Assembly: GCA_001567355.1 (NCBI GenBank)
Contig: JYNZ01000002.1
Span: 199,477 to 263,476 of the forward strand
Length of the DNA: 64,000 nucleotides
Reading direction: 5' to 3'
From: a candidate division WS6 bacterium OLB20
GTDB lineage: Bacteria; Patescibacteriota; Dojkabacteria; B142; OLB20
This document shows, piece after piece, positions 6,329 to 45,037 of the stretch (positions are counted from its first letter, which is position 1; each line of letters opens with the position of its first letter). Below the pieces are notes generated by a model. It did no database searches. It saw nothing but the letters and a program-made list of their open reading frames with translations, and was not told where the DNA came from. The position numbers and the translations under genes were made by a program.

Positions 6329-6736
6329 TCAGTTACTCAGTGAAGGGGGATTGCTTGAATAATCAACGATGTATACTTCTGTTATTTCTGACTCCATAAA
6401 TCCTGCCGAAATACTTACATTTTTAAGTGTCCCGCCGGCGTCTGTCACCGTTGCAGTGCAACTTCTGCCCGGATAGCTGTCAGGATAGGTTACAATAAAG
6501 CTACCCAGATAATTATTATCACTTCTGATCAGACGTACCGCCTCTTCGAGACAGGAACGTGTCGTAAGGCGTGCGTACACACTGTCAGAGTAGCCGCGTG
6601 TAGAGACTGCAACATCTGAGGCAGCGAGCAGGAGAGCGATACCGCCTGCCAGCAGTATTGCCATCGACAGGATCAGAATGGTCAGCGCGATGATTCCCTT
6701 GTGCTTAGTTTTCATAGTTGATCGAAATACTTTCAA
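6329..6736 (-). CDS. PilX-like minor pilin / pilus assembly protein
   Basis: 135 aa. Basic N-terminus followed by a hydrophobic helix (KHKGIIALTILILSMAILLAGG). Overlaps the next pilin gene (translational coupling). Confidence 0.45.
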   Translation of the reverse strand: MKVFRSTMKTKHKGIIALTILILSMAILLAGGIALLLAASDVAVSTRGYSDSVYARLTTRSCLEEAVRLIRSDNNYLGSFIVTYPDSYPGRSCTATVTDAGGTLKNVSISAGFMESEITEVYIVDYSSNPPSLSN

Positions 6737-8702: not shown

Positions 8703-9188
8703 TTAGAAGTCCAGCAGAAACGCTGACTCCACCTCACGTACCACATCCGGAAACTTATCAGAGGTATACGTTGCAACAACTCTGATCCCCACAAGCGATC
8801 CGTCTGACAGTTCAACAGGTTCAAAGCGCAACTGTGTGACCCGCAGTTCTCCGGATGAGATAAAATTATCAACCCCTTCCTCGCTGAACTCGATCCGCTG
8901 CGAGTCGAGACGATAGATGTAATCATCGGTTCCGGCCGTAAGGTGCAGTACGCCGTTGTTGTTGTCAAACACGGAGGTCCCTGCATTGATGGCCGATGCG
9001 CGGTTGAATGTATCCTCCATATGATTAAACAGAAACAGGACGGAGCGTTCTACCTCATTCTGGACGAGACTGCGTCTGTTGGACTCAGATACACTGAGCA
9101 TAAATGCGATGACCACGGTGAACATGACACCAAACACGGCAAGATACACAAGAGTTTCAATCAGAGTTATCGCCCGTTGTCTCACCAT
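8703..9188 (-). CDS. pseudopilin with prepilin-type N-terminus
   Basis: QRA|ITLIETLVYLAVFGV with Glu at +5. Residue -1 is Ala rather than Gly. Confidence 0.55.
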   Translation of the reverse strand: MVRQRAITLIETLVYLAVFGVMFTVVIAFMLSVSESNRRSLVQNEVERSVLFLFNHMEDTFNRASAINAGTSVFDNNNGVLHLTAGTDDYIYRLDSQRIEFSEEGVDNFISSGELRVTQLRFEPVELSDGSLVGIRVVATYTSDKFPDVVREVESAFLLDF

Positions 9189-9646
9189 CAGAGTGCGGTT
9201 TTAAGATATTCTATCAACCCTTCGCTGTTGACCTGCAGCCTGTGCTGGTACGTTCCGTCAGTATACGAAGCGTAGCCAAACACGTCAGGCCTGAAGGACC
9301 CGCTGGCAAAGACAACCTCTGTCGCACCGCCTCCAAATGCTGTCTCGTCAAAGGCGACACCTGATGGCAGTCCAAATTCTGCCGTATCAGTGGCGGAAGC
9401 GAGCGAGGGACCGGTAAAAACGGTTATACCGTCAGCGTCAAAAGCTATCCCGTGATCGTTACCTCCGTTTCCCGAAAACGACAGCTGCTGCTGCAGAAAA
9501 AAGCGTGAAGTCATGTCTCGCATGTACGCATCTGCATTGGTCTGAATAATGCTTGATACCGTGAGAGGAATAGACACAAGAGCGATTGCAACAAGAACAC
9601 CCATCACAACAACTATTTCAAGCATTGTGAATGCTTTATGCTTCAT
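9188..9646 (-). CDS. pseudopilin with prepilin-type N-terminus
   Basis: KHKA|FTMLEIVVVMGVLV with Glu at +5. Residue -1 is Ala. Confidence 0.55.
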   Translation of the reverse strand: MKHKAFTMLEIVVVMGVLVAIALVSIPLTVSSIIQTNADAYMRDMTSRFFLQQQLSFSGNGGNDHGIAFDADGITVFTGPSLASATDTAEFGLPSGVAFDETAFGGGATEVVFASGSFRPDVFGYASYTDGTYQHRLQVNSEGLIEYLKTAL

Positions 9647-10725
9647 CCGCGTATTGATCCGGTCAGCTGGTAAATCGGCATAATGATAAACAGAGCCAGC
9701 AGACCGATCATGGCTCCGATAAAAACAAGCAGAAGAGGTTCAAGCAGGGTTGTCAGATTGCTGCTCATCTCTTGTACCTCTTCTGAGTAAAAGTCGTACA
9801 GATAGTTGAGGTTTTCCTCCAGAGATCCCGTCTGCTCACCAACATCAATCATTTTTACAAATGTACCGGGAAAGTATTTTGGATAGGTGCTGAGTGTATC
9901 GGCAAGATTATGGCCGCTTTTGATCCCTTCATATACATCTTTGATCGCAAGCTGGTATTTGTAGTTTTCGACTGTATCGGCCGTGATCTTAAGTGCTGTC
10001 TGGATCGGCATACCGCTTTCAAGCAGAATCCCAAGAGTCCTTGAGAACTGCGTAAGCATATTGTTCATGGCAAGCGTTTTCATCACCGGTATCTTTAGAC
10101 CGAGCGAGTCCTTAAATCTCTTTCCCGGCTCTGTTTTAAGCAGCCTCATAATTATCAGGATCAGAATGACTGCGCCTCCGAGAATTGCTATACCATTGGC
10201 CCGGATAAACCCTGCAAAGTTAAGGACAAACACGGTAAACTCTGATTTATTTTCAAAGGATGCAAACAGCTGTTCAAGCTGGGGCAGAATAAAAAAGATG
10301 ACACCGGTCATTTCAAGGACTGTAATCGCAAGTACAATCATAGGATAGACAAGCGCACCTTTGACTTTACGCTGCAGTTCAAAGTTTTTCTTCAGATAAT
10401 CCGCAAGAAAGAGCAGGTTTTTCTCAAGCGTTGCTCCCTGTTCACCGATACTGATGATTGAGATGATAATCTCAGAGAAGATATCTTCGTGTTTACGCAT
10501 AGCATCAGCCAGATTCATTCCTGATCTGACATCAAGAAGAATCTCTTCATATGCTTCTTTCAGCTTCTCGTCAATTGCCTGATCTGCCATTACTTTCAGC
10601 GCATCCTCGATAGCAAGACCCGTCCGAAGCATGATTGACAAATGTCTTATAGAGAGCGCAATATCAAGGGGGGATACCTTGTGAAGAATGTATATCTTTT
10701 TACCTTTGACAACCTCTAGTACCAT
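9643..10725 (-). CDS. pilC: type IV pilus assembly platform protein PilC (GspF family)
   Basis: Two T2SS-F repeats and three TM segments. GspF-like motifs (GLAIEDALKVMA..., GMPIQTALKITAD). Confidence 0.85.
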   Translation of the reverse strand: MVLEVVKGKKIYILHKVSPLDIALSIRHLSIMLRTGLAIEDALKVMADQAIDEKLKEAYEEILLDVRSGMNLADAMRKHEDIFSEIIISIISIGEQGATLEKNLLFLADYLKKNFELQRKVKGALVYPMIVLAITVLEMTGVIFFILPQLEQLFASFENKSEFTVFVLNFAGFIRANGIAILGGAVILILIIMRLLKTEPGKRFKDSLGLKIPVMKTLAMNNMLTQFSRTLGILLESGMPIQTALKITADTVENYKYQLAIKDVYEGIKSGHNLADTLSTYPKYFPGTFVKMIDVGEQTGSLEENLNYLYDFYSEEVQEMSSNLTTLLEPLLLVFIGAMIGLLALFIIMPIYQLTGSIRG

Positions 10726-12065
10726 TATTCTTTAAGGGCAGTAACACGGATCAGCTCAGACACCCCGGTGACACCGGCTTTAAGTTTTTTTACGCCATCC
10801 TCTACAATCAGCACGAGACCGTTCTTTCTGGCCTGTTCGTAGATATCGTCAACGCTGGCATGCTCTGTGATCAGTTTGCGGATGGATTCATCAATATCAA
10901 ACACTTCATACAGACCGACGCGTCCTTTAAACCCCGTACCGTCACAGACATTGCATCCTACCTCATGATAAAGTTTTTCTTCGGGCTTGAGAAGCGCTGC
11001 AATATCAGGACGCATCTTTGTCAGTTGCTCAAGGTCAGCCTTAGTAAGCGTAAACTCTTTTTTGCATTCGTCGCAAAGTTTACGGGCAAGACGCTGGGCA
11101 ATAACCAGATTTACTGTTGATGCAACAAGAAAATCCTCGATTCCCATATCGATCAGACGGGGGATTGCTGTGACCGCATCATTGGTATGCAGCGTTGAAA
11201 GCACAAGATGTCCGGTCAAAGCTGCATTGGTGGCAATACGTGCAGTCTCCGCGTCACGGATCTCACCAACCATGATGATATCCGGATCCTGACGCAAAAT
11301 TGAACGCAGACCTGAAGCAAATGTCAGATTGGCCTTTGTATTGATCTGAATATGGTTGACTCCTTCAAGGTCGTACTCAACCGGATCTTCAACCGTGGTA
11401 ATATTCACCTCAGTCGAGTTAAGGATCTTAAGTATTGAATACAAAGTAGTCGTCTTGCCGGATCCCTTCGGTCCTACCGCCAGGATCATACCGTAGGGCT
11501 TGTTGTATGCCTTTTCTACAGCTTCGAGCTCGTTATCCCGCAGACCAAGGTCCTGCAGTTTAAATGACCGGCCAGCTGATGTAAGCAGACGCATTACAAC
11601 TTTTTCACCACGTGTAATCGGCAGAATGGATACGCGGGTATCGAGCTTTTTGCCATCGAAAATAAAACGGATACGTCCGTCCTGTGGAGCAAAGTGCTCA
11701 TCTGTACGCAGCTTGGCAGAAACTTTGATCTTAAAAATCAGTGCCTGCTCAAGGTTTTTATCAATGGTGAGAACTTCACGCAAAATACCGTCAACACGGA
11801 ACCTGATCAGCAGCTCGCTCTCCTGTGGCTCCATATGAACATCTGATGCTTTGCTTTTGAGGGCGTTAAAGACTATGCTGTCGAGCAGCTCAATAATATT
11901 TACAGGCCCTGCAGTTGCGCTGATATGCTCAATTTCTCTCTTTTTTACTGTCTGGCCTTTGAGCGCAGCTTCGTTTGTGGCCTGTTCCTTTTTACTATTC
12001 TGTTTTGCATCCTCTTGTGCCTGACCGGTTTTTTCAGCCGGGGCAGCCTTTGTTTCTTCGGCCAT
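10725..12065 (-). CDS. pilB: type IV pilus assembly ATPase PilB (GspE family)
   Basis: Walker A VGPKGSGKTTTLYS, Asp box, Walker B DIIMVGEIRD, His box. C-terminal tetracysteine (CDEC...CNVCDGTG). Confidence 0.9.
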   Translation of the reverse strand: MAEETKAAPAEKTGQAQEDAKQNSKKEQATNEAALKGQTVKKREIEHISATAGPVNIIELLDSIVFNALKSKASDVHMEPQESELLIRFRVDGILREVLTIDKNLEQALIFKIKVSAKLRTDEHFAPQDGRIRFIFDGKKLDTRVSILPITRGEKVVMRLLTSAGRSFKLQDLGLRDNELEAVEKAYNKPYGMILAVGPKGSGKTTTLYSILKILNSTEVNITTVEDPVEYDLEGVNHIQINTKANLTFASGLRSILRQDPDIIMVGEIRDAETARIATNAALTGHLVLSTLHTNDAVTAIPRLIDMGIEDFLVASTVNLVIAQRLARKLCDECKKEFTLTKADLEQLTKMRPDIAALLKPEEKLYHEVGCNVCDGTGFKGRVGLYEVFDIDESIRKLITEHASVDDIYEQARKNGLVLIVEDGVKKLKAGVTGVSELIRVTALKE

Positions 12066-33219: not shown

Positions 33220-33266
33220 ACACAATAAATTGTTGCTAACTTGTGTTACCTCCACAAGAAGTTGTG
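33220..33266 (+). promoter_or_regulatory. two NrdR-box-like palindromes, centres 32 bp apart, upstream of nrdR-nrdJ
   Basis: ACACAATAAATTGTTG at 33220-33235 and CACAAGAAGTTGTG at 33253-33266. Both resemble the reported NrdR-box consensus (acaCwAtATaTwGtgt); NrdR boxes are reported to occur as pairs spaced about three helical turns. Confidence 0.35.
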
Positions 33267-33307
33267 CTTAGTGAAGATTCTTAGTCAAACTTTTTTACTG
33301 CGTAATA

Positions 33308-33769
33308 ATGCTGTGTCCGTTTTGTCATAAAGACTCAAACAAGGTTATCGATAAACGCGATAATAACGAGACTGGTGTAACCAGAAGAAGGAGAGAATGT
33401 CTTATCTGTACAAAACGCTTCACCACCTACGAACGAATCGAAAATATCAGCCTGCATGTTGTAAAGCGAAGTGGCAAAATAGAAGAGTTTGACAGGGAAA
33501 AACTCAAACGCGGTGTAACAAGAGCAGTAAAGAAACGGCTGATCCCCGAATCTGTCATTGACGAAATGATTGATGATATCGAGCTGAAGCTTCTCAACAG
33601 AAAGACAAGTGAAATAAAATCCACGGAAATCGGAAAAATGGTTCTGACACGACTAAAGAAAATCGATACTATCGGTTATCTTCTGTTCGCTTCCGTATAT
33701 CGCGACTTTAACTGCATCGCCGACTTTGAGGAGGCAATAGCAGAACTTAAACATGTTACTTCCACTTAA
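33308..33769 (+). CDS. nrdR: transcriptional repressor NrdR
   Basis: Zn-ribbon MLCPFCH...RRRRECLICTKRFTTYE followed by an ATP-cone. 153 aa. Confidence 0.9.
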   Translation: MLCPFCHKDSNKVIDKRDNNETGVTRRRRECLICTKRFTTYERIENISLHVVKRSGKIEEFDREKLKRGVTRAVKKRLIPESVIDEMIDDIELKLLNRKTSEIKSTEIGKMVLTRLKKIDTIGYLLFASVYRDFNCIADFEEAIAELKHVTST

Positions 33770-33784
33770 TACATTTATTCAGCT

Positions 33785-35578
33785 ATGGCACAATCACGCT
33801 TTGCAACAGAACCGAAACTGACAGATAACGCCAGGATGATTGCAGAAAAACGATATCTCAAGCTTGAACCTGATGGTTCTGTAAAAGAGACACCACGCGA
33901 GATGTTTGCCCGCGTTGCCAGGTTTATAGCCAGCGGTGACAGCGACACATCAGACAAGAAGAAGGATTACTCCAGGCCCTCTCAGAAAGAGATAGAGGAG
34001 CTTGAGAACTCATTTTTTGAGATCCAGGCAAACCTTGAGTTTCTGTCTGGTATGTCTCTGCTGGACAGGGGCAAAGAGGATCTTGTTGCTGCCTGCTATG
34101 TACTGCCGATTCACGATAATATCGAATCCATCTATGGAACGCTTGCCAATGCAGTCGTTCTCCACAGACGGGGTGCAGGTATCGGATACGACTTCTCGGA
34201 GATCAGGCCTGAGGGTGAGACAGTTTCCACCACTGGTCGCGAGGCATCCGGTCCGATCTCATTTATGAAACTATATGACTTCAGCTCCGAGGTGATTATG
34301 AACAGGGGAGCTGTAAGACATGCGGGTCACATGGGCATCCTTCGTATTGATCACCCGGATATCCGTAAGTTTATTTCAGCCAAACAGGATTACTCCCAGC
34401 TGACCAACTTTAATATCTCGATTGCCATTACTGACGAGTTTGCTGATGCTCTTAAAAAAGGTACAAGCTACAACCTGCAGCATGACGGAAAGGTGTACGG
34501 GCAGATCTCTGCAGAAGAGGTACTCAACGAGATTGCAGCAAGTATCCACCGTTCCGGTGAGCCTGGATTCATCTTTGTAGACGAAATCAACAGGCACAAT
34601 CCCACACTTCACATCGGCAGAATGACGTCGACCAACCAGTGCGGCGAACAGCCACTGCTGCCGTATGAGGCATGCAATCTGGGCTCTGTTGTATTAAACA
34701 GGTTTGTCATCCAGGATAAACGTAAACAGGATGTTCCTGCCAAAGACAAGATAGACTGGGACAGACTTGCATATGTAGTAAAAACTGCAGTGCATTTTCT
34801 GGATAACACCATCACTGTTTCGCAGCATCTGCTTCCTGAGATCGAGAAAATGGTCAAACACGGCAACCGCAAGATCGGAATCGGTGTAATGGGTTGGGCT
34901 GACATGCTGTATGAGCTCGAAATCCCTTATAACTCCAAGGAAGCACTGGAACTGGCCGAGACCGTGATGAAGTTTATCAAGGAGAAGGGCCACGAGAAGT
35001 CACAGGAACTCGGCGAGAGAAAAGGCGATTTCGGCAACTTTAAGGGATCAAAATGGGACAAAGAAGGCTACAAACACATGCGCAATGCAACAGTGACGAC
35101 AATCGCCCCCACGGGTACGACAAGTCTACTGGCTGACTGCAACGGAGGCATTGAACCGTTCTTTGCCCTGGCATATGTGCGTAAGAACATGGAGACTATG
35201 GGAGATACCGAAATGGTGTATGTGAATAAATATCTTGAACAGAAACTGAAGGATGAGTGGCTCTATGATAAGGAATTGATGCGCAGGATTGCCGGTACAG
35301 GCACACTTGCATCATTTGACAAGATTCCGGACAGAGTCAAAAAGGTGTTTGTATCGGCATTTGATATCTCTCCTGAGTGGCATATCAGGATGCAGGCCGC
35401 ATTTCAGAAGTATACTGACAATGCTGTATCAAAAACGATAAATATGCCTGAAGAGGCAAGTGTAGAAGATGTTGCAGAAGCGTTCCGTCTGGCAGCGTCG
35501 CTGGATCTGAAGGGTCTTACTATTTACCGGGATAAAAGCCGGGATCAGCAGGTATTAAATTTACATAACTCAAAATGA
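33785..35578 (+). CDS. nrdJ: class II (adenosylcobalamin-dependent) ribonucleotide reductase catalytic core, standalone and lacking the C-terminal redox tail
   Basis: N-terminal Cys (AACYVLPIHDNIESIYG). Finger-loop motif TNQCGEQPLLPYEACNLGS. B12-type core. Ends at ...GLTIYRDKSRDQQ without the Cys-rich tail. Confidence 0.8.
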   Translation: MAQSRFATEPKLTDNARMIAEKRYLKLEPDGSVKETPREMFARVARFIASGDSDTSDKKKDYSRPSQKEIEELENSFFEIQANLEFLSGMSLLDRGKEDLVAACYVLPIHDNIESIYGTLANAVVLHRRGAGIGYDFSEIRPEGETVSTTGREASGPISFMKLYDFSSEVIMNRGAVRHAGHMGILRIDHPDIRKFISAKQDYSQLTNFNISIAITDEFADALKKGTSYNLQHDGKVYGQISAEEVLNEIAASIHRSGEPGFIFVDEINRHNPTLHIGRMTSTNQCGEQPLLPYEACNLGSVVLNRFVIQDKRKQDVPAKDKIDWDRLAYVVKTAVHFLDNTITVSQHLLPEIEKMVKHGNRKIGIGVMGWADMLYELEIPYNSKEALELAETVMKFIKEKGHEKSQELGERKGDFGNFKGSKWDKEGYKHMRNATVTTIAPTGTTSLLADCNGGIEPFFALAYVRKNMETMGDTEMVYVNKYLEQKLKDEWLYDKELMRRIAGTGTLASFDKIPDRVKKVFVSAFDISPEWHIRMQAAFQKYTDNAVSKTINMPEEASVEDVAEAFRLAASLDLKGLTIYRDKSRDQQVLNLHNSK

Positions 35579-35820
35579 ACGTGGGATTAGAAGCCTTCAG
35601 TATTTCACAATCAGTGTTTCTGGAAAAAGTAGGTCAGGACCTGAGTTTCGGTGTCAGGATAAAAGGGTCCCGTGATACCGGCAAAGATGTGGTTCGCGTC
35701 TGGACCGATACACAGAGCTGGCAGTTCAGTCTGATGGGGCTGATTGATGACGAGCAGGTCATTACTGTTGAGCGTGTGGAGATCCAGTCATTCGGATCAA
35801 GCGTTCAATATATGAGCTGA
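35575..35820 (+). CDS. small hypothetical ORF (81 aa), possibly a vestige of an NrdJ C-terminal region
   Basis: ATGA overlap with the nrdJ stop. Faint similarity of FGVRIKGSRDTGKDVVRVW to the VRGLTTKVRTEQGELFVTI segment of the large NrdJ. Confidence 0.2.
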   Translation: MNVGLEAFSISQSVFLEKVGQDLSFGVRIKGSRDTGKDVVRVWTDTQSWQFSLMGLIDDEQVITVERVEIQSFGSSVQYMS

Positions 35821-36019
35821 TCGCTGTCCACACCGAGCCCGAACTTGAGATTGACCTGCAAAAGCTCAGTCCCAATTTTGCCGAGCTGTCAGATGTATCT
35901 GCTGAAGAGGCCCGCTATTTTATGGAGGGGTATATGCAGTCAACTGTAAACAGAACACTGACGCAGCAGCTGTTTACAAGTTTTGCAAACGAGGAGGACG
36001 TTCAGAACTGGTTATCACT

Positions 36020-36898
36020 ATGAATACAGACGTAACAATTACAACAGTTGGTGTGATCTATGACACAGAGGGCAGGCTGCTTGTCACAAAACGTGCTGCA
36101 CAGGAAGATCACGCGGCAGGGGTTTACTCGTATCCAGGAGGGAAACTTGAGTATGACGGCAGCAGCGACGGCAGGGATACGATGTTTATCCTTGAAGACA
36201 ATCTGCGCAAAGAAATAAAAGAGGAAACCGGGATCGAAACAGGAGAACTTACCTACCTGAGCTCTCATGCATTCGTTAAAGAATCAGGATCAAAGGTCGT
36301 CATTGTAGCCTATGCAGCCGAGTATGTTGCTGGCGAGGCACTGGCAGTGGAGGCGAGCGAAGTCAGCGAAGTGCGCTGGATCAGCCGTGATGAAATCGAT
36401 GCAGTGATTGAGTATGAGTCTGTCAGGATTGTTTACCGTCAGGCAGCAGACTACATCGCAGCACAGAATGCTCTCTACCACGTGCAGCTTGGTGCCATGG
36501 TTATTAATGAGCAGGAGGAGTTTTTACTGGTTCGCTACGCAGAACGTCCCGACCATCTTGAAGTACCGAAAGGTGCTCTGCACAGAAGTATCAAGGGAAG
36601 CTGGGAAGCAATGGAGCAGGAGACAGCCAGAACCGTGTTTCAACAGACCGGCGTTGAGGTGGCAGACGGACAGATCCCGTTTACTGATCAGATTCTCATG
36701 GATAAAGAGCGGTTTGATACTGTCATGCAGTACTTTATCTGCAGATATCAATACGGTACGGCAATGATTAAATCACCTGAAACTGTTACCGAGGTCGTCT
36801 GGGTGCATATCAACGATATTGACCGTTCAGAGGTCAACGAAAAAGACTATCTGATGCTTTACAAGGCGCACGATTTTCTGTCTGCGCTCCGCACTTAA
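36020..36898 (+). CDS. tandem Nudix hydrolase (two Nudix folds)
   Basis: Canonical Nudix box GGKLEYDGSSDGRDTMFILEDNLRKEIKEETGIE in the first half. Degenerate second Nudix-like half (VPKGALHRSIKGSWEAMEQETARTVFQQTGVE). Confidence 0.75.
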   Translation: MNTDVTITTVGVIYDTEGRLLVTKRAAQEDHAAGVYSYPGGKLEYDGSSDGRDTMFILEDNLRKEIKEETGIETGELTYLSSHAFVKESGSKVVIVAYAAEYVAGEALAVEASEVSEVRWISRDEIDAVIEYESVRIVYRQAADYIAAQNALYHVQLGAMVINEQEEFLLVRYAERPDHLEVPKGALHRSIKGSWEAMEQETARTVFQQTGVEVADGQIPFTDQILMDKERFDTVMQYFICRYQYGTAMIKSPETVTEVVWVHINDIDRSEVNEKDYLMLYKAHDFLSALRT

Positions 36899-37020
36899 CT
36901 ATTTTTACTTATTTTACTTACAGCACACAATCATGAGCACTAACGAACCATTTGAAGAACTGCAGGATATTCCTGAGGATCTGTTTACACCCGAACTGAG
37001 CGAAAAACTCGCTTGAGATT

Positions 37021-40000
37021 ATGCGAAAACGGCATCTGCTTAAAGATGACCAGGGTGAACTGCTGGAAGAACCGCGTGACATGTTCTGGCGTGTTGCCAG
37101 AAGCATGGCACTGGAAGATGCCAAGTATGTAAAAGGTGCTCAGGCCAGAAAGGAGCGTGTCGTCAAGCGGACAGCGCGTGAGTTTTATGAGCTGCTTGCC
37201 GGTAACAGGTTTCTGCCAGGGTCACGTGTGCTGTACGAAGCCGGAAACGAGATCGACGGAACAGGACAGCTGTCCTCATGCTTTGTGCTGCCTATTGAAG
37301 ACAGCCTGGAGTCCATCTTTGAAACCATGAAGGAAGCTGCCATTGTTCAGAAGAACAACGGCGGTACCGGATTCAACTTCTCGCATATCAGACCAAAAGG
37401 TGACAGTGTCGGCGGCACCCCAAATGTGGCCGCAGGTCCGGTGCACTTTATTCGCAGTTTTTCACAGGCTTTTGACCAGGTGTTGCAGGGTAAAAAGCGC
37501 GGAGGCGGCAACATGGCAATTCTCAACGTCAACCACCCTGATATCATCGAGTTTATCAACCTTAAGGGCCAGGACAACTCTATCCGCAACTTTAATATCT
37601 CTGTCGGTGTGACGGACGAGTTCATGCAGGCAGTAAAGAACGATGAGGAGTATGATCTGATCAATCCGCGTAACGGACAGGCTGTAAAACGCCTGCGGGC
37701 ACGCGAGGTCTTTGATCTTATCTGCGAAAAAGCATGGGAATGTGCAGACCCCGGACTGTTCTTTCTTGATACTACGCAAAATGCCAACCCGACCAAGCCG
37801 CTTGGTGTTATCGAAGCAACCAATCCATGCGGTGAGGAACCGCTGCGTGCATACGAATCGTGCAATCTGGGATCGATTGTGCTCCCCACTCACCTGATAA
37901 AGGTAAATGGTGAGTATCAGGTTGACTGGGAGCTGCTGCGCAAATCAGTGCGCTCAGCTACACACTTTCTTGATAACATGATCGATCTGAGCAAATTCCC
38001 GCTGAAGAAAATTGAACAGGAGGTCGAACAGACACGCAAACTCGGACTCGGACTTGTCGGTCTTGCATCCATGTTCTACATGATGGAAATCCCGTACAAC
38101 TCAAAGGAGGCTACAGATCTGACAAAGGAGATAATGGCATTTGTACAGGAGGAGGCTACCGTTGAATCCGAAAACCTGGCAAAGGACAGAGGGGTATTCC
38201 CCGGTTTCAAAGGAAGCAAATGGGATGATCTGGGTCGGGAGGTGCGCAACGCAACTATGACCTCAGTGGCACCAACCGGAACTCTGAGCCTGGTGGCAGA
38301 CACGTCAAGCGGTATTGAGCCGGTCTTTGCGCTTGTATACAAACGCAGCAGTTTTTACCAGGATGAAGGACAGGAGGAAAGAAAACAGCTTCTTTACGTT
38401 GACCGGCACTTCGAGGCGTACGCGCGTGAGCACGGTTTCTACTCCGAGGATCTGATGGAGAAGATTGCAGAAAACCGCGGTTCACTGCACGGTCTGGCAG
38501 AGGTTCCTTCTGATGCGCAGAACATTTTTGTCACAACTCACGATATCGAGCCTGACTGGCATGTGAAAATGCAGGCAGCAGCACAGGACTCTGTAGACGC
38601 TGCTGTCTCAAAGACAATCAACCTGCCAAACGAGGCAACTGTTGATGATGTCAGAACCGCATATGTTCAGGCATGGGAACTTGGCTGTAAAGGTATCACC
38701 ATTTACCGTGACGGCAGCAAGCAGTTCCAGGTACTTGAAAACGTCAGCAAAAAAGAAAAAGTCGAACAGGAGGAGGCAAAACTTGACCTTACATTTAACG
38801 TCAGCGCAAAGACTCACGAGGAAGAACACATTCTCACTGAGAATGCGATGACAGTGCTTGAAAAGCGGGCACTCGCCAAAGATGACAGCGGTGCTATCGC
38901 AGAGACTCCCGACCAGCTTTGGCGCAGAATTGCACGCAAGGTTGCTTCTGCCGAGCAGCAGTCGCTCCAGGACACTTACGAAGAGGCGTTTTATCAGCTC
39001 ATGCATAATGGAGAGTTTTACAGCGGAGGAACACTTCTCTGGGCCGGTATGGGTGAAGAGACTATTCTGTCTAAATGCCTCGTGCTTCCGGTCTCGGATT
39101 CAATCGATTCGATCTTTCAGACACTTAACTGGAACATTCAGTGCCTCAGGCGGGGAGTCGGGACAGGGTTCAACTTCTCCACCATCAGATCCAGCTACGC
39201 CCAGGTTAAAACGACCGGCGAGTTTGCAGCCGGACCAGTAGAGTATCTGCGCATGTACAATCGGGCACAGGATACTATCAGGGGCCGCGGTGGCAGAGGC
39301 CTTGGATCGATGGCAATACTTAACGCCGACCACCCGAATATTGAGGAGTTTATCGAAAGCAAGGACGATCTTACAGCGATTTCGCACTACAACATCTCGG
39401 TCGGAGTCAGCGATGCTTTTATGAAAGCAGTAAAAAACGATGAGGACTGGGATCTTACAGACCCCTCTGACGGCAAGGTTTACAAGACAGTAAAAGCACG
39501 CGCACTGTTTGAAAATATTGCCCGTCATGCATGGAAGAGCGGCGACCCCGGACTGTTTTTTGTTGATGTCGCTGAGCGTGCAAATACAACACCGGCGCTT
39601 GGCCGTATGGATGCCACAAACCCCTGCGGAGAGCAGCCGCTGATCCCGTTTGAGACCTGCAATCTGGGTCATATCAACCTTGCTCGGATGATTCAGGGCT
39701 TCCCGTATGCAGCAGATGAGACGGTCAGAGACTGGAGCTTTGAGCGCAAGATGGAACTGATCGACTGGGATCGCCTCAAGGATGTTACCTACCTGGCAGT
39801 CCGATTTCTGGACAACATTATCGATGTCAACAACTACCCGATCAGAGAGATCGAGGAGATGACCAGAAAGACAAGAAACGTTGGCGTCGGTGTCATGGGG
39901 TACACTGACATGCTGATCAAGCTGGGTATCAGCTACGGATCTGCAGAGTCGGTTAGGATCGCTGAAGAAGTGATGAGCTTTATCCAGGATACTGCTCATG

Positions 40001-41373
40001 AAGCATCACAGAAGATCGGTGAAGAAAAAGGCAGTTTCCCGGCATTTGAGGAGTCAGTCTGGAAGCAGCAGGGCAAGACCGCAATGAGGAATACCCGAGT
40101 GACCACCATTGCTCCGACAGGGACTATCTCCATCGTGGCCAATGTGAATCCAGGTATCGAGCCTGTATTTGCCTTGGGGTTCAGACGCAAAAACTCAATG
40201 GGGGGCACGGACCAGGAGGTAATCGATCATCAGTTTGAAACAGTAGCACGGGCACGAGGAATTTACTCAGATGAGCTGATGAAGAAGATCGCCGACGGTG
40301 CTCATCTGACAGCGTTGCAGGAGGAGTTTTCGATCCCCGCTGATGTTGTTGATGTGTTTGTAACAACGCACGAAATCGATCCCGAAAAGCACGTTCAGAT
40401 CCAGGCAGCATTCCAGAAATACGTGGACAGTGCGGTATCAAAGACAATCAATCTTCCCAAAACAGCTTCATGGCAGGACATAGCCCGTGTATATCAACTG
40501 GCGTATGATCTGGGTTGTAAAGGCATCACTGTCTTCAGGGATGGTTCCAAGGATCCTGCGCTGCAGGTCGGTACCGTTGAGAAAAAGACCGAGCCGGCAG
40601 CAGAAGTCAGGATTGAAGCCAAAGCAGGTGCTGCACGCAACTCTCTCAGCCCCAGAAAACGTGATGAAGTTGTGCGCGGACTGACAACAAAGGTCCGGAC
40701 AGAACAGGGTGAACTGTTTGTCACCATCAACGAGGACGATGAAGGCATCGTTGAGGTGTTCCTGACCCTTGGTAAGAGCGGAAGCTACACAGCCGGCTAT
40801 ACAGAGGCTGTGGGACGTCTGGTATCAATGTCACTGCGTTCCGGTATCAAGCCGGAAGCTATCATCGATCAGCTTCTGGGCATCAGAACGTCAGCGCCTA
40901 CAATGAATCGCGGAGGACTGATTGTATACTCGGTACCCGACGCAGTCGCCAAGGTTCTAAAGAAACACCTGGAGGAGAAAAAGAACCAGATCCGTCTGCT
41001 TCCGGAGGATGATGCTCAGACAAGCAAAATCGAGCAGGTGATAGCAGAGGTTACAACAGAGAGCCGCCCGCTTCAGCCCGCAAAGCTTGAAACGCAGGAG
41101 GTAATCGAAGAGGTGATCATTCAGAACAGCAAACCTGTTGCTCAGACAGCACCTAAGCCGCAGCCGCAGGTTACCGTCACAGAAAAGAAACCGGAACCTG
41201 TAAAAAGAGCTGATGAACATCTGCCGGCTATACTGAGCGGTATCGATACCAGCAAATACAGCAAACAGAATACAATGGGTGATCTGCTCGAATGCCCTGA
41301 CTGTGCTGGAGATCTTGAATACGCCGAAGGATGCATTTTATGCCGGAGCTGTGGTTACAGCAAATGCGGATAA
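37021..41373 (+). CDS. nrdJ: class II ribonucleotide reductase with two complete catalytic cores fused in tandem, plus a single C-terminal domain and Cys-rich zinc-ribbon tail (1450 aa)
   Basis: Core A (aa ~1-590): SSCFVLPIEDS, TNPCGEEPLRAYESCNLGS. Core B (aa ~625-1185): SKCLVLPVSDS, TNPCGEQPLIPFETCNLGH. Each ends in GCKGITIYRDGSK or GCKGITVFRDGSK. Only core B continues into the NrdJ C-terminal domain and CPDCAGD...CILCRSCGYSKCG. Confidence 0.85.
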   Translation: MRKRHLLKDDQGELLEEPRDMFWRVARSMALEDAKYVKGAQARKERVVKRTAREFYELLAGNRFLPGSRVLYEAGNEIDGTGQLSSCFVLPIEDSLESIFETMKEAAIVQKNNGGTGFNFSHIRPKGDSVGGTPNVAAGPVHFIRSFSQAFDQVLQGKKRGGGNMAILNVNHPDIIEFINLKGQDNSIRNFNISVGVTDEFMQAVKNDEEYDLINPRNGQAVKRLRAREVFDLICEKAWECADPGLFFLDTTQNANPTKPLGVIEATNPCGEEPLRAYESCNLGSIVLPTHLIKVNGEYQVDWELLRKSVRSATHFLDNMIDLSKFPLKKIEQEVEQTRKLGLGLVGLASMFYMMEIPYNSKEATDLTKEIMAFVQEEATVESENLAKDRGVFPGFKGSKWDDLGREVRNATMTSVAPTGTLSLVADTSSGIEPVFALVYKRSSFYQDEGQEERKQLLYVDRHFEAYAREHGFYSEDLMEKIAENRGSLHGLAEVPSDAQNIFVTTHDIEPDWHVKMQAAAQDSVDAAVSKTINLPNEATVDDVRTAYVQAWELGCKGITIYRDGSKQFQVLENVSKKEKVEQEEAKLDLTFNVSAKTHEEEHILTENAMTVLEKRALAKDDSGAIAETPDQLWRRIARKVASAEQQSLQDTYEEAFYQLMHNGEFYSGGTLLWAGMGEETILSKCLVLPVSDSIDSIFQTLNWNIQCLRRGVGTGFNFSTIRSSYAQVKTTGEFAAGPVEYLRMYNRAQDTIRGRGGRGLGSMAILNADHPNIEEFIESKDDLTAISHYNISVGVSDAFMKAVKNDEDWDLTDPSDGKVYKTVKARALFENIARHAWKSGDPGLFFVDVAERANTTPALGRMDATNPCGEQPLIPFETCNLGHINLARMIQGFPYAADETVRDWSFERKMELIDWDRLKDVTYLAVRFLDNIIDVNNYPIREIEEMTRKTRNVGVGVMGYTDMLIKLGISYGSAESVRIAEEVMSFIQDTAHEASQKIGEEKGSFPAFEESVWKQQGKTAMRNTRVTTIAPTGTISIVANVNPGIEPVFALGFRRKNSMGGTDQEVIDHQFETVARARGIYSDELMKKIADGAHLTALQEEFSIPADVVDVFVTTHEIDPEKHVQIQAAFQKYVDSAVSKTINLPKTASWQDIARVYQLAYDLGCKGITVFRDGSKDPALQVGTVEKKTEPAAEVRIEAKAGAARNSLSPRKRDEVVRGLTTKVRTEQGELFVTINEDDEGIVEVFLTLGKSGSYTAGYTEAVGRLVSMSLRSGIKPEAIIDQLLGIRTSAPTMNRGGLIVYSVPDAVAKVLKKHLEEKKNQIRLLPEDDAQTSKIEQVIAEVTTESRPLQPAKLETQEVIEEVIIQNSKPVAQTAPKPQPQVTVTEKKPEPVKRADEHLPAILSGIDTSKYSKQNTMGDLLECPDCAGDLEYAEGCILCRSCGYSKCG

Positions 41374-41601: not shown

Positions 41602-42708
41602 ATGCACCTTCTCGGTCCGCTCTATCGAAACGGGATCAAACCATTACTATTCAGGTTTGATCCCGAATCAGTTCATGACAGAATGCTGACAGCTGGCAGG
41701 CTGCTTGGTGCGATACCGCCTGCACGGTTTCTGACAAGGCTGGCTCTTCGCTTTGATCATCCGGTTCTTTCTCAGACAGTATCAGGAGTATTATTCCCCA
41801 ATCCGGTCGGTCTGTCTGCGGGTTTTGATAAAAATGCAGAACTGACACGGATTCTGCCTGCTGTAGGTTTTGGTTACTCCGAACTTGGCTCAGTAACATG
41901 GAAGCCATATCAGGGTAACCCCAGACCACGCCTCACAAGGCTTCCGAAGTCAAAAGCGATTGTCGTCTACTACGGACTGAAAAATATCGGTGTCGAACGC
42001 ATTCTTCCCAGGATTCCTGACAGAGGCAGCCGTCATCCGTTTAGCATCAGTATTGCCAAGACAAACAGTGAAGCCACAGCCAGGACAGAAGATGGCATAG
42101 AAGATTATTATCAGTGCATGAAAACAGTACTGGCATCAAACAAGGGAGATATTCTGACGATTAATATCTCATGTCCAAACACTTTTGGCGGCGAACCGTT
42201 TACGACTCCTGAGCGTCTTGACGCCCTGCTCAGCAGACTTGACACACTGCACTCTGATCGCCCGGTCTGGATAAAGATGCCTATCAACCAGACCTGGGAT
42301 GAATTTAGAGATCTGCTTGTCACAGCTTCGGATCACAAAGTGGACGGTGTGGTTATCGGTAATCTGACCAAAGCGAGAGACCCGGGTCTGATTCTTGATG
42401 ATCTGTCTGATGATGTTAAAGGCGGCATCTCGGGTGTGCCGACAAGGGAACTCAGCAACAACCTGATCAGCAGAACATTTCAGGAGTTCGGACAGCGGTT
42501 CACAATCATCGGGGTCGGCGGAATATTCTCTGCAGAGGACGCATACGAGAAGATACGTCTTGGGGCAACTCTTTTGCAGATGATTACAGGGATGATTTAC
42601 GAGGGACCGCAAATAATCGGAGAGATTAACAAAGGACTGGCAGAACTTCTGAGACAGGACGGATATGCATCAATTACTGAAGCAGTGGGAAGTGCTCACA
42701 CTTCGTGA
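41602..42708 (+). CDS. pyrD: dihydroorotate dehydrogenase (class 2-like)
   Basis: N-terminal extension, then the DHODH barrel (NPVGLSAGFDKNAE, GFGYSELGSVT, IIGVGGI). Confidence 0.8.
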   Translation: MHLLGPLYRNGIKPLLFRFDPESVHDRMLTAGRLLGAIPPARFLTRLALRFDHPVLSQTVSGVLFPNPVGLSAGFDKNAELTRILPAVGFGYSELGSVTWKPYQGNPRPRLTRLPKSKAIVVYYGLKNIGVERILPRIPDRGSRHPFSISIAKTNSEATARTEDGIEDYYQCMKTVLASNKGDILTINISCPNTFGGEPFTTPERLDALLSRLDTLHSDRPVWIKMPINQTWDEFRDLLVTASDHKVDGVVIGNLTKARDPGLILDDLSDDVKGGISGVPTRELSNNLISRTFQEFGQRFTIIGVGGIFSAEDAYEKIRLGATLLQMITGMIYEGPQIIGEINKGLAELLRQDGYASITEAVGSAHTS

Positions 42709-43307
42709 TACCTGCTGGCTATGTTTTCACGTCCGTAGCGCATAGTTCGCGCCATCCAGATAAGTTCAGTAACAGCTCGCTCGGTGCGTTCAACAAACGC
42801 CACATCAAGCAGATTACCATCGTCATCAAACAGATCCTGGACTTTAGGAAAATGCACGTCTGTGAAACATGCTGTCATTCCCATCTCGCGGACTGACGAG
42901 ACGAGGGACTCAATTGCACGCACACCACCCCAGGGACCAGCTGAGACACCGGCAAATGCAACAGGTTTGTGAATGTAATTCTTCAGCTCGGAATCAAGCA
43001 GACGCTTGAGGGATCCGGGAATACCGTGGTTGTATTCGGGTGTGACAATGAAGAAGCCATCCGCTTCTGCTGTCATGTTTGAGTATCGGGGATCCTTCTG
43101 CCCGTCAGAATTACCGTCAAGCGGTGTCTCCATCTCGCGCGGATCAGCATAGGAAAGCTCTATCTCGTCATGCTCTTCGAGCATTGAACGAACAAAGCGG
43201 GTAACCATCTCCGTCCTGTTTCCGGGACGTGAAGTGCCATGGATAAGAACAATTTTCAGTTTTCTTGCGTCGTTCATACTACATACTACCACAGGATATG
43301 GATGCAA
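42696..43307 (-). CDS. NAD(P)H-dependent FMN reductase (flavodoxin-like fold)
   Basis: KLKIVLIHGTSRPGNRT N-terminal motif. 203 aa. Confidence 0.7.
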   Translation of the reverse strand: MHPYPVVVCSMNDARKLKIVLIHGTSRPGNRTEMVTRFVRSMLEEHDEIELSYADPREMETPLDGNSDGQKDPRYSNMTAEADGFFIVTPEYNHGIPGSLKRLLDSELKNYIHKPVAFAGVSAGPWGGVRAIESLVSSVREMGMTACFTDVHFPKVQDLFDDDGNLLDVAFVERTERAVTELIWMARTMRYGRENIASRYHEV

Positions 43308-43333
43308 CCGTTCGCACGTGTTAGATTAGGATC

Positions 43334-45037
43334 ATGAATACATCAGTCGCAGTACTTGGAGGGGGAGTCGGCGGACTTAGTGTCGCACACGAACTCGTAA
43401 AAAGCGGTTTTTCGGTGACCGTATATGACAAAAACAGCATCTGGGGCGGCAAAGCCCGGAGCATGCCTGTTCCAGCGAGCGGTACAGATGGTCGAGCTGA
43501 TCTTCCGGGTGAACATGGTTACCGGTTTTTTCCGGGTTTTTACCGGCATATTGATGAGACAATGGCCGAAATCCCTTACAAGGCGGGGTCTGTTCTTGAT
43601 AACCTCGTGCACACAAAGGTTAATCTGATGACACGGACTGTGGGTGGAGAACAGGTGGTTGTCTCACGATTCCCCCGCTCACTGCGTGAACTTGAGAACT
43701 TCCTTGATTTTATGATCCTTGATTCTTTTGATGTGCCGCAAGCTGATGCGCAATTCTTTTCACAACGGATCTGGCAGCTGATGACAAGTTGCAAGGAACG
43801 CCGTGACACGGAATACGAACAGCGCAGTGCCTGGGAGATGCTAGATGCCGAAAACAGGTCAGAAAACTACAGAACTATGTTCATTGAACAGGTCCGGGCG
43901 CTGGTGGCAGCCGATCCGCGAAAGATCAGCGCTAAAACTGCAGGCAACATATTTCTTAAACTGATGAGTGACATCATCAATCCGGGCTCGCATGGCAATG
44001 ACAGACTGCTCAACGGCCCCACAAACGATGTCTGGATCGATCCCTGGGTCGACTATCTGACAGACAAGGGTGTCACATTTATCAGCGGTGTAACAGTCCA
44101 GTCGCTTGAGACCGACTCAGGGCGGATTACCGGTGTAGTTGCACACGACAATGAAACCAGCCGGGACCTCATCATCAATGCGGATTATTATGTCCTTGCT
44201 GTCCCTGTTGAGAGGGCGGCTGAGATAATCCGCAGTTCTGCAGGTCTGCTTGATACAGCCCAGTCACTCCGGGGCATTGGAAAACTTGCTGACGAAGTAG
44301 AATGGATGAACGGTCTGCAGCTGTATCTGAATAAAGACATTGACCATTACAGCGGCCATGTAATGATCATGGACAGTCCGTGGTCACTGACGTTCATCTC
44401 CCAGCTTCCGTTCTGGAAGGATTTCGATATCAGCCGTTATGGTGACGGATCAATTAAGACACTGCTGTCTGTAGATATTTCCGACTGGCATCGTGATGGT
44501 CTGTTTGTAAACAAACCAGCCGAACACTGTACGCCGGAGGAGATCAAAGATGAGGTCTGGGGTCAGCTCAAAGCAACTATAGGTGCACATGGTATTGAGC
44601 TGCATGATAATGATCTGGTTACCTGGTTTCTGGATCCTGCAGTGTCTGCCGACACAGCAGTACAAAGTCATACGCACAACACTAACGCAGAGCCGCTTCT
44701 GATAAACACTGCGGGCAGCTGGAAGCTGCGTCCGGAGGCAGGCACCGAAATAACAAACCTGATGCTTGCAGCAGATTACATCCGTACTGATACTGATCTG
44801 GCAACCATGGAAGCGGCAAACGAAGCAGCCAGGCGAGCCGCCAATGCCATTTGCAGAGGAGAACAGCTGCCTGAGCATTCTGTAATTCATGAGTGGAAGG
44901 ATCCCGCATGGCTGCATGTGTTTCATATATATGACCGCAGCCGCTTCAGGCGCGGATTAGCCTGGAAGGGCTATAACCCGGTCCGGATTAAACTGGCAGG
45001 AATGCTTAGAAGTCTCCTGCGCAGGCTCTGGCGCTGA
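43334..45037 (+). CDS. FAD-dependent oxidoreductase (amine oxidase/phytoene desaturase-like)
   Basis: Dinucleotide-binding motif VAVLGGGVGGLSVAHEL...VYDKNSIWGGKARS. 567 aa. Confidence 0.6.
   Translation: MNTSVAVLGGGVGGLSVAHELVKSGFSVTVYDKNSIWGGKARSMPVPASGTDGRADLPGEHGYRFFPGFYRHIDETMAEIPYKAGSVLDNLVHTKVNLMTRTVGGEQVVVSRFPRSLRELENFLDFMILDSFDVPQADAQFFSQRIWQLMTSCKERRDTEYEQRSAWEMLDAENRSENYRTMFIEQVRALVAADPRKISAKTAGNIFLKLMSDIINPGSHGNDRLLNGPTNDVWIDPWVDYLTDKGVTFISGVTVQSLETDSGRITGVVAHDNETSRDLIINADYYVLAVPVERAAEIIRSSAGLLDTAQSLRGIGKLADEVEWMNGLQLYLNKDIDHYSGHVMIMDSPWSLTFISQLPFWKDFDISRYGDGSIKTLLSVDISDWHRDGLFVNKPAEHCTPEEIKDEVWGQLKATIGAHGIELHDNDLVTWFLDPAVSADTAVQSHTHNTNAEPLLINTAGSWKLRPEAGTEITNLMLAADYIRTDTDLATMEAANEAARRAANAICRGEQLPEHSVIHEWKDPAWLHVFHIYDRSRFRRGLAWKGYNPVRIKLAGMLRSLLRRLWR

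Follow-up and report, generated by a model that had tools for sequence, protein, structure and literature searches.

The tandem nrdJ gene and its product

DNA precursors are made de novo only by ribonucleotide reductases (RNRs), enzymes whose allosteric control of specificity across subunits is a textbook mechanism. We analyzed a stretch of 64,000 nucleotides (the window) from the candidate division WS6 bacterium OLB20, a member of the Dojkabacteria (contig JYNZ01000002.1, positions 199,477 to 263,476, forward strand). One gene in this window encodes two complete catalytic cores of class II RNR (NrdJ) in tandem, followed by a single C-terminal redox tail. The initial annotation, made from the letters and open reading frames (ORFs) alone, had described it as one uninterrupted frame of 1450 amino acids (aa) with two NrdJ cores. 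It had also suggested a domain scan, an alignment of three cores (the two fused ones and an upstream 597-aa NrdJ, here core 3), a NrdJ phylogeny, a structure prediction and a search for long homologues. The ORF list of the window confirms the frame, which runs without interruption from 37021 to 41373 on the forward strand. Its parts, together with the probable start of the gene, are as follows (AF2, AlphaFold2; pLDDT, predicted local distance difference test score).

36933..37020 (+), 29 codons that probably form the N-terminal start of the tandem gene, shifted from its frame by a 1-nucleotide (nt) excess in the A5 run at 37003-37007
37021..38736 (+), core 1, aa 1-572, a complete dimeric-type NrdJ catalytic core with the catalytic residues C87, N268, C270, E272 and C281; loop 2 LQGKKRGGGN
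38737..38838 (+), inter-core linker, aa 573-606, K/E-rich, disordered in AF2
38839..40590 (+), core 2, aa 607-1190, a complete dimeric-type NrdJ catalytic core with the catalytic residues C686, N867, C869, E871 and C880
40675..40986 (+), TSCPD/IscU-like domain, aa ~1219-1322, Pfam TSCPD 6.1e-21, no Cys in the window copy
40996..41286 (+), disordered tether from TSCPD to zinc finger, aa ~1326-1422, AF2 pLDDT 29-45
41293..41367 (+), zinc finger of six Cys that include the redox pair, C1425-x2-C1428-x9-C1438-x2-C1441-x2-C1444-x4-C1449

Pfam places the all-alpha N-domain, Ribonuc_red_lgN, and the ten-stranded barrel domain, Ribonuc_red_lgC, twice each on the 1450-aa protein, and TSCPD only once (residues 1226-1317), in line with the earlier claim that only the second core continues into a C-terminal domain and Cys cluster. 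In NCBIfam, the NrdJ_Z equivalog matches the protein in two stretches, and PRK08665 matches residues 597-1450 end to end. The motifs named in the initial annotation were all found (SCFVLP and KCLVLP, NPCGE twice, CNLG twice, and CPDC...CILCRSC...C), as were the two core ends, GCKGITIYRDGSK and GCKGITVFRDGSK. The K/E-rich linker, also described there, is disordered in the AF2 model (pLDDT below 50 for residues 572-599). A public record 100% identical to the tandem protein carries the name "Ribonucleoside-diphosphate reductase NrdZ", and public tandem sequences are annotated simply as adenosylcobalamin-dependent RNR.

Judged by their profile matches, both fused cores are RNRs of the dimeric class II type. 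Scored alone with NrdJ_Z (TIGR02504, equivalog cutoff 399.95), core 1 and core 2 reach 659.2 and 598.1 bits, and core 1 matches model positions 5-606 of 606. Because each core exceeds the cutoff by itself, the two-core match cannot be due to chance. Scores remain below the cutoff of 341.05 for the class I model TIGR02506 (307.8 and 293.7) and far below the cutoff of 340.05 for the monomeric RTPR model TIGR02505 (40.9 and 61.1). AF2 modeling of the two-core region (residues 1-1195) gave a mean pLDDT of 88.5, with about 90 for core 1, and a Foldseek search with the model returned T. maritima NrdJ chains as the best fold matches (template modeling score, TM, 0.82). Each core has a long beta-hairpin (residues 439-460 and 1053-1068), an element implicated in adenosylcobalamin (AdoCbl) binding in class II, while a YY radical-transfer dyad on betaJ is typical of class I and class O (PMC9531940). 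This dyad of the ferritin-dependent classes is absent from both cores, whose betaJ motifs are ITIYRD and ITVFRD.

The five catalytic residues (C134, N320, C322, E324 and C333 in T. maritima numbering; window counterparts in the list above) are conserved to 100% in 116 core 1, 116 core 2 and 113 core 3 sequences. Of these, C322 is the thiyl-radical Cys of the finger loop, which also bears N320 and E324, and C134 and C333 are the redox-active pair. The same holds for the effector-site residues D141 and R171 in all three groups, and for the substrate-phosphate loop (APTG..S) in both fused cores (116 sequences). Mean within-group identity is equal for core 1 (0.585) and core 2 (0.582). The initial annotation had considered that one core might be a degenerate spacer; for the second core as for the first, this was ruled out by the full catalytic conservation, the equal within-group identity and the NrdJ_Z scores above cutoff. 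The two fused cores are apparently active, and all three appear catalytically competent. We infer the AdoCbl (vitamin B12) dependence of the family and the phosphorylation state of its substrates from homology. A cob(I)alamin adenosyltransferase gene (CobA/CobO/BtuR) lies directly 3' of the tandem gene at loci L001, L090 and L091, an indirect link of the family to B12 (L-numbers denote homologous loci and P-numbers homologous proteins used for comparison).

The tail was modeled together with core 2 (pLDDT 85.4, predicted TM score (pTM) 0.73). TSCPD adopts an alpha+beta fold in this model (pLDDT about 93), and a small beta zinc-ribbon is seen at ~1431-1449, which agrees with the description of long class II C-termini as an IscU-like domain plus a zinc finger (PMC9669993). 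All six terminal Cys are invariant in the 91 aligned tandem proteins, and the spacing 2-9-2-2-4 was found in 117 of 118 tandem and 60 of 67 canonical tails. In S. nassauensis NrdJd, four of the Cys have been proposed as zinc ligands and two as the electron-shuttling pair, all six are essential for tail-mediated reduction, and the tail of one subunit was shown to pass electrons to another's active site (PMC5704485). NrdJd paralogues that lack the tail, noted in Frankia and in certain Alphaproteobacteria, occur only in company with a tailed paralogue (PMC5704485).

The tether, measured from the TSCPD motif PDA[IV]A to the first Cys, has a median length of 85 aa in tandem proteins (interquartile range (IQR) 76-92, minimum 58, n=106) versus 43 aa in canonical NrdJs (IQR 35.5-49, maximum 63, n=55). 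The two ranges are nearly non-overlapping (Mann-Whitney p=3.6e-25). A tail that had several active sites to serve would need a tether lengthened in this way.

Core 1 (aa 1-580), core 2 (aa 597-1195) and core 3 align with pairwise identities of 39.5-41.8%. Core 1 and core 2 share 41% aa identity, and at the DNA level only short patches of 64-73%, so that a collapsed or chimeric repeat is impossible. The fusion is uninterrupted at the DNA level in 9/9 independently assembled loci examined. The tandem ORF is real and not an assembly artefact.

The gene probably starts at 36933 and not at 37021. The family motif NSLEI sits behind an in-frame stop just 5' of the ATG at 37021, and a short ORF in a different frame begins with the ATG at 36933. 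With one A fewer in the A5 run at 37003-37007, the two join to a 1479-aa ORF without internal stop, whose N-terminus (..DLFTPELSENSLEIMRKRHLL) agrees with the family consensus PxxxxNSLEI. The probable start rests on the alignment of this restored N-terminus (MSTNEPFEELQDIPEDLFTPELSENSLEIMRKRHLL) with the closest homologues, P0002 and P0005. The apparent 1-nt homopolymer indel would have arisen either in the assembly or by recent mutation. Separate expression of core 2 from a conserved internal start was considered and rejected, as the Met of ..ENAMTVLEKR.. is Leu in the family consensus.

The dimer-interface and specificity module

In class I and class II RNRs, alphaA, loop 1, alphaB and loop 2 make up the region through which the enzymes dimerize, and which also binds the specificity effectors and couples them to the substrate (PMC9531940). 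As reference for the three paralogues we took the 210 alignment positions with a conservation of 85% or more in 80 canonical NrdJs. Canonical-invariant residues are replaced at 20 of these positions in core 1, 33 in core 2 and 44 in core 3, and the replacements are concentrated in positions 130-211, which span the four elements. In core 1, 14/51 positions inside this region are replaced versus 6/159 outside (odds ratio (OR) 9.6, p=6.5e-6). The corresponding counts are 18/51 versus 15/159 for core 2 (OR 5.2, p=3.9e-5) and 25/51 versus 19/159 for core 3 (OR 7.1, p=1.2e-7). The barrel and the active site are canonical in all three paralogues.

Loop 2 illustrates the change. Its canonical form, KQGGtRRGAN, is almost invariant in single-core enzymes. 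In core 1 it reads lQGkKRgGgN, with Q203 retained. In core 2 it reads rGGG-R..Gs, with Q203 lost and a 1-residue deletion in 100% of the sequences, including the window (RGRGG-RGLGS). In core 3 it reads NRGavRHAGH. Each version is conserved inside its own paralogue group. The canonical alphaA/alphaB residues H157, G160, S185, S189 and M191 are retained in core 3; at the same positions core 1 has Q, N, A, H and I, and core 2 has L, G, A, E and L (G160 being kept).

This pattern bears the signature of a duplication followed by specialization of the allosteric and dimerization module, and not of decay, because the replacements cluster in the module while barrel and active site stay canonical.

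Distribution, phylogeny and operon of the tandem family

Searching for homologues of the tandem protein yielded 120 clusters, nearly all of 1400-1500 aa, with 100% query coverage and down to 47% identity. Nearly all contain N-x-C-G-E twice and a single C-terminal Cys cluster. The source assemblies come from NCBI, JGI, ENA and Logan and are assigned to Dojkabacteria, Kerfeldbacteria, the "Parcubacteria group" and the "Patescibacteria group". A second search, seeded with the most distant tandem member (P0241), returned about 9 more tandem clusters and then canonical NrdJs of ~750 aa. In an exhaustive library of representatives at 50% identity, only P0089 and P0241 were complete tandems, with P0243 a truncated one. 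This limits the family to roughly 130 clusters at 90% identity, and all members with a name belong to the Candidate Phyla Radiation (CPR). A profile scan of genome contigs with the tandem alignment gave almost only canonical single-core NrdJs, with both halves of the profile matching one core.

Other representatives matched in several stretches were rejected as tandems, those checked by Pfam being intein-interrupted NrdJs. Many canonical NrdJs nearest to core 2, among them P0257, P0276, P0366 and P0249, carry 1-3 inteins with LAGLIDADG homing endonucleases. Of the tandem proteins examined from CPR, none contains such inteins.

Of 120 homologues, 119 have an N-terminal core closer to core 1 of the window and a C-terminal core closer to core 2. 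A neighbor-joining (NJ) tree (167 taxa, 504 columns, 200 bootstraps) was built with the 80 canonical NrdJs as outgroup, which were collected in the scan of genome contigs and represent many bacterial and archaeal phyla. Each paralogue forms a clade of its own (core 1, 92%; core 2, 99.5%; core 3, 98%), and the three together form a joint clade (82%). The tree, which had been suggested in the initial annotation, does not settle the branching order among cores 1, 2 and 3. The orthologous core order in 119/120 homologues and the monophyletic paralogue groups indicate a single origin.

The linker between the cores is 19-75 aa long in homologues. A Ham1/ITPase domain stands between the cores in 15 of them (inter-core gap 215-229 aa; residues 620-805 of P0006 and 600-786 of P0076), making the protein of this lineage an RNR-ITPase-RNR fusion of ~1600 aa (P0076 at L003 8001-12821). 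Ham1/ITPase is a non-canonical purine NTP pyrophosphatase domain. In the same lineage, a 205-aa ORF with a Walker-A motif (GTMTSGK) lies between both nrdJ genes (L003 7262-7879); its AAA_18 and dNMP-kinase-like matches are sub-threshold only, and it may be a nucleotide kinase.

A related ARRANGEMENTS is found at L017, another Patescibacteria genome, which encodes two separate NrdJs (5974-8355 and 9123-11174). One is core-1-like (54% identity, loop 2 LQGAKRNGAN) and has a short zinc finger directly after the barrel and no TSCPD. The other is divergent and has both TSCPD and zinc finger; a Fic-domain gene follows. The core-1-like NrdJ shows that unfused relatives of the core 1 lineage exist.

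Upstream of the tandem gene, the window contains the following features.

33220..33267 (+), candidate NrdR operator: box ACACAATAAATTGTTG at 33220-33235 and a second, CACAA..TTGTG palindrome at 33252-33267, starting 32 nt downstream
33308..33769 (+), nrdR (Zn-ribbon and ATP-cone repressor of RNR genes), Pfam Zn_ribbon_NrdR 1.7e-16, ATP-cone 1.6e-18
33785..35578 (+), core 3, the third NrdJ paralogue, 597 aa, Pfam lgN and lgC, NrdJ_Z 591.7 (cutoff 399.95), finger loop NQCGE
35575..36017 (+), conserved ORF of ~150 aa, apparently frameshifted (81-aa ORF at 35575-35820, the rest in another frame to ~36017)
36020..36898 (+), NUDIX hydrolase, MutT-like, Pfam NUDIX 1.8e-19 in two stretches

Core 3 has neither TSCPD nor zinc-finger tail in the window, and its homologues form at least 120 clusters of ~590 aa without TSCPD, of which 43 share a same-sized longest contig with a tandem cluster. 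At each of the loci inspected, the tandem gene has the core 3 gene directly upstream. The initial annotation had used this NrdJ only for sequence comparison and had missed that it is a conserved operon partner without zinc finger.

The order nrdR, zinc-finger-less NrdJ, small ORF (in some lineages), NUDIX, tandem NrdJ is conserved in the window, in Dojkabacteria L087 and L088 and in Kerfeldbacteria L089. nrdR takes the equivalent position in six further loci (L005, L087, L088, L089, L090 and L091), and a NUDIX gene lies between both nrdJ genes at L087 (5111-5980), L088 (5063-5956) and L089 (5219-5686). Its place in the operon suggests that synthesis of deoxynucleoside triphosphates (dNTPs) is coupled with sanitation or turnover of the nucleotide pool. 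In the window and in L087, which is the closest of the relatives examined, the ~150-aa ORF stands between core 3 and NUDIX; L088 lacks it. It has no match in Pfam or PDB and is similar to a 149-aa ORF of L087 (67.5% identity over the first 80 aa and 49% over the rest). Its 81-aa part overlaps the stop of the core 3 gene, and it contains the second apparent frameshift of the window.

The upstream paralogue has ~720 aa in the tandem lineages that diverge most (L090 3839-6001 and L091 3814-5970). It keeps a TSCPD with four IscU-like Cys (GCGG, SGDC, IRC, LSCAD) and has no zinc finger; this may represent a remnant able to bind Fe-S or an intermediate stage in evolution. In both operons, two NDK genes lie further downstream of the cob(I)alamin adenosyltransferase gene. 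Since the upstream paralogue is without zinc finger even where TSCPD is kept, three catalytic cores with one zinc-finger redox tail is the invariant rule of the family.

The candidate NrdR operator consists of two partially palindromic 16-nt sequences, 32 nt apart, upstream of nrdR. The NrdR box pattern gave one match with 3 mismatches, which is not significant alone (46/100 shuffles gave at least one). Placement and spacing agree with published NrdR boxes (PMC13584703). No comparable NrdR-box-like site was found upstream of the tandem gene. An Rfam scan for a cobalamin riboswitch or other RNA elements gave just two tRNAs, and promoter and terminator scans did not differ from shuffles.

On the 3' side of the tandem gene (41602-45037) are genes for a dihydroorotate dehydrogenase (adjacent in L087 as well), an NADPH-dependent FMN reductase (opposite strand) and a flavin amine-oxidase-like oxidoreductase, a pyrimidine and redox neighborhood of a kind not usual in CPR genomes, whose biosynthesis is reduced.

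Arrangement of the cores and comparison with known systems

The above observations suggest the following course of events. An ancestral dimeric-type nrdJ (core plus cysteine-rich tail) would have multiplied to give three paralogous catalytic cores. Two of these would have been fused head to tail, in the order core 1, disordered linker, core 2, TSCPD/IscU-like domain, ~100-aa tether and six-Cys zinc finger. The third would have stayed a separate gene without zinc finger, immediately upstream in the nrdR-headed operon and usually accompanied by the NUDIX hydrolase gene. Core 1 and core 2 would then pair as an asymmetric heterodimer, joined covalently and with two specificity sites that are not equivalent, and substrate and effector preferences would be partitioned between the paralogues. 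The single zinc-finger redox pair, on its double-length tether, would re-reduce the active-site disulfides of both fused cores, and would probably serve the zinc-finger-less third paralogue in trans. The partitioned specificity and the sharing of the tail are what we infer from these patterns.

Pairing of core 1 with core 2 within one chain is, in our estimate, the most likely arrangement (probability roughly 55%). Each core needs a partner, since it is of the dimeric type, has no monomer-type insert and keeps the effector-site residues; the fused neighbor is then the obvious candidate. A hint of such pairing is that core 1 and core 2 have both changed the canonical alphaA/alphaB residues 157, 185, 189 and 191, which core 3 retains. 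In addition, the top inter-core pair by mutual information (MI) with average product correction (116 sequences, effective number 60) is an alphaB-alphaB pair, namely position 199 of core 1 and position 193 of core 2.

Several observations weigh against this pairing. The AF2 model of the two cores, made for a single chain without ligands and from a shallow alignment of 84 sequences, has a pTM of only 0.56 despite its pLDDT of 88.5, so that the relative orientation of the cores is not confident. As a limit of the model itself, RNR dimerization is often effector-dependent (PMC5704485) and the model contained no ligands. Inter-core MI is only weakly enriched in the interface region (40 pairs observed versus 22.5-28.7 expected at N=1000, i.e., ~1.4-1.8-fold), and the list is dominated by phylogenetic hub columns. 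The variable linker length, with even a whole Ham1 insert tolerated, implies that the geometry is not tightly constrained. Both the divergence statistics and the tether statistic set one clade against the rest, and thus reflect few independent evolutionary events (a single maintained change for the tether). The stems in the NJ tree are long, and long-branch attraction is possible. The initial annotation had proposed a covalent pseudo-dimer with two active sites sharing one redox tail. Two intact cores and one tail per chain stand, while intramolecular packing is plausible; the structure prediction it had suggested gave folded cores and no confident packing like that of a NrdJ dimer.

The low pTM, the weak coevolution and the variable linker would also fit a possible, less probable arrangement without any intramolecular dimer, in which cores pair between chains (core 1:core 1', core 2:core 2', or one of them with core 3). 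Tetramer-like or chain-like assemblies would result, and the fusion would only fix the stoichiometry and keep the tail near several active sites. Ham1, which the linker accepts, is itself typically dimeric, and core 1 and core 2 differ at just 11/149 jointly conserved positions. Canonical NrdJs containing the cysteine-rich domain assemble into tetramers and hexamers, the only oligomers in which electrons were seen to pass efficiently between subunits (PMC5704485). On the other hand, the specificity site needs an alphaA/alphaB partner, and the fused core is the nearest one, present at very high local concentration. The interface positions changed in common by core 1 and core 2 and retained in core 3 also argue against pairing between chains, as does the order of core 1 then core 2, fixed in 119/120 homologues.

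A more far-reaching version of pairing within the chain is tentative and, in our view, rather doubtful. In this version, the three paralogues would divide the labor, each with substrate and effector preferences hard-wired or narrowed through its own remodeled loops 1 and 2; the fused chain would be an obligate asymmetric single-chain heterodimer, one long-tethered redox arm would re-reduce all three cores, and NUDIX and Ham1, as pyrophosphatases that sanitize the dNTP pool, would be integral to the system.

It is quite improbable that one fused core is a silent regulatory or scaffolding pseudo-subunit, a whole-core analogue of the insert of monomeric NrdJ, with the other core alone turning over. 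Half-of-sites behavior is known in RNRs, and the strongly non-canonical loop 2 of core 2 (Q203 lost, invariant deletion) and its larger number of replaced canonical-invariant residues (33 versus 20 in core 1) would fit such a role. However, the five catalytic residues and the APTG..S loop are fully conserved in both cores, the two evolve at an equal rate, both exceed the NrdJ equivalog cutoff end to end, and the replacements lie in the allosteric module and not in the barrel.

An artefact of assembly or annotation, through repeat collapse, a chimeric contig or a sequencing error that erased the stop between adjacent nrdJ genes, can be dismissed as the origin of the tandem ORF. Two apparent 1-nt frameshifts nearby indicate imperfect base-level quality in the window, but the mis-assembly that the initial annotation had asked to be checked is effectively excluded by the low identity between the cores and by recurrence of the fusion in more than 120 protein clusters from independent assemblies of four sources, down to 47% identity, with linkers that vary in length and content while the frame is always kept.

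As the initial annotation had supposed, no description of a fused two-core NrdJ was found in the literature searched on class II RNR fusion or duplication and on CPR. Neither of the two most comprehensive recent analyses, one of RNR diversity and one of insertions and extensions in RNRs, refers to catalytic cores that are duplicated or in tandem. Each module is known; the fused two-core chain, the operon of three cores and one tail, and the targeted remodeling of the specificity module seem to be new. To our knowledge, all described class I and class II enzymes have identical catalytic protomers, or are monomers with a small mimic of the partner.

A single chain with two different active cores would make both specificity sites and both active sites individually addressable by mutation. 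It would offer a handle on half-of-sites reactivity, on which subunit's loop 2 reads which effector, and on whether a tail services its own or the neighboring site. From Dojkabacteria to Kerfeldbacteria, ultra-small CPR genomes that have shed most nucleotide biosynthesis devote about 6 kb to three RNR cores. Their retention implies a strong selective reason, for example a balanced dNTP supply from scavenged nucleotides, and the recurrent coupling with NUDIX and Ham1 pyrophosphatase hints at an integrated module for dNTP synthesis and sanitation. If true, a division of labor among the three paralogues would have replaced the classical allosteric RNR ("one homodimer, four substrates, three effectors") in CPR.

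Among known systems, the best solved relative of the tandem protein is T. maritima NrdJ (PDB 1XJE, 1XJK, 3O0O and others). It has the same fold (TM 0.82 per core) and 36-38% identity to the window cores, and shares the catalytic residues C134/N320/C322/E324/C333, the alphaA/loop 1/alphaB/loop 2 layout and the kind of C-terminal cysteine-rich domain. It is, however, a homodimer with one core per chain and a canonical loop 2 (KQGSRRRGAL), whereas the tandem protein has two diverged cores per chain, remodeled loops 2, and one tail for two fused cores and one free core.

S. nassauensis NrdJd (Loderer et al., 2017; PMC5704485) resembles the tandem protein in its tail of 150-220 aa with six terminal Cys. 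This tail can reduce the site of another subunit, and some genomes hold tail-less and tailed paralogues (PMC5704485). S. nassauensis NrdJd differs in having one tail per core and x5 as last Cys spacing (2-9-2-2-5), versus x4 in the tandem family, where the tether is ~2x the canonical length and one zinc finger is present per three cores. The split NrdJa and NrdJb of P. aeruginosa (PMC4520616; PMC9669993) show that a core and a TSCPD/zinc-finger tail are separable and can work from different polypeptides; the rearrangement is the opposite one, a gene split and not a fusion, and there is one kind of core.

In the monomeric RTPR of L. leichmannii (NrdJm), as is proposed for the tandem protein, one polypeptide supplies the second subunit's share of the specificity site. 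There, an insert of ~130 aa mimics the partner helices, whereas the "partner" in the tandem protein would be a whole second catalytic core. Finally, class I NrdA with multiple ATP-cones (PMC9669993) resembles the tandem NrdJ in that a module of the RNR was duplicated in tandem within the protein and the copies then diverged. The duplication in NrdA is confined to the small regulatory cone, and its inner copies are prone to degenerate; in the tandem NrdJ, the duplicated unit is a core of ~580 aa, and both copies are intact.

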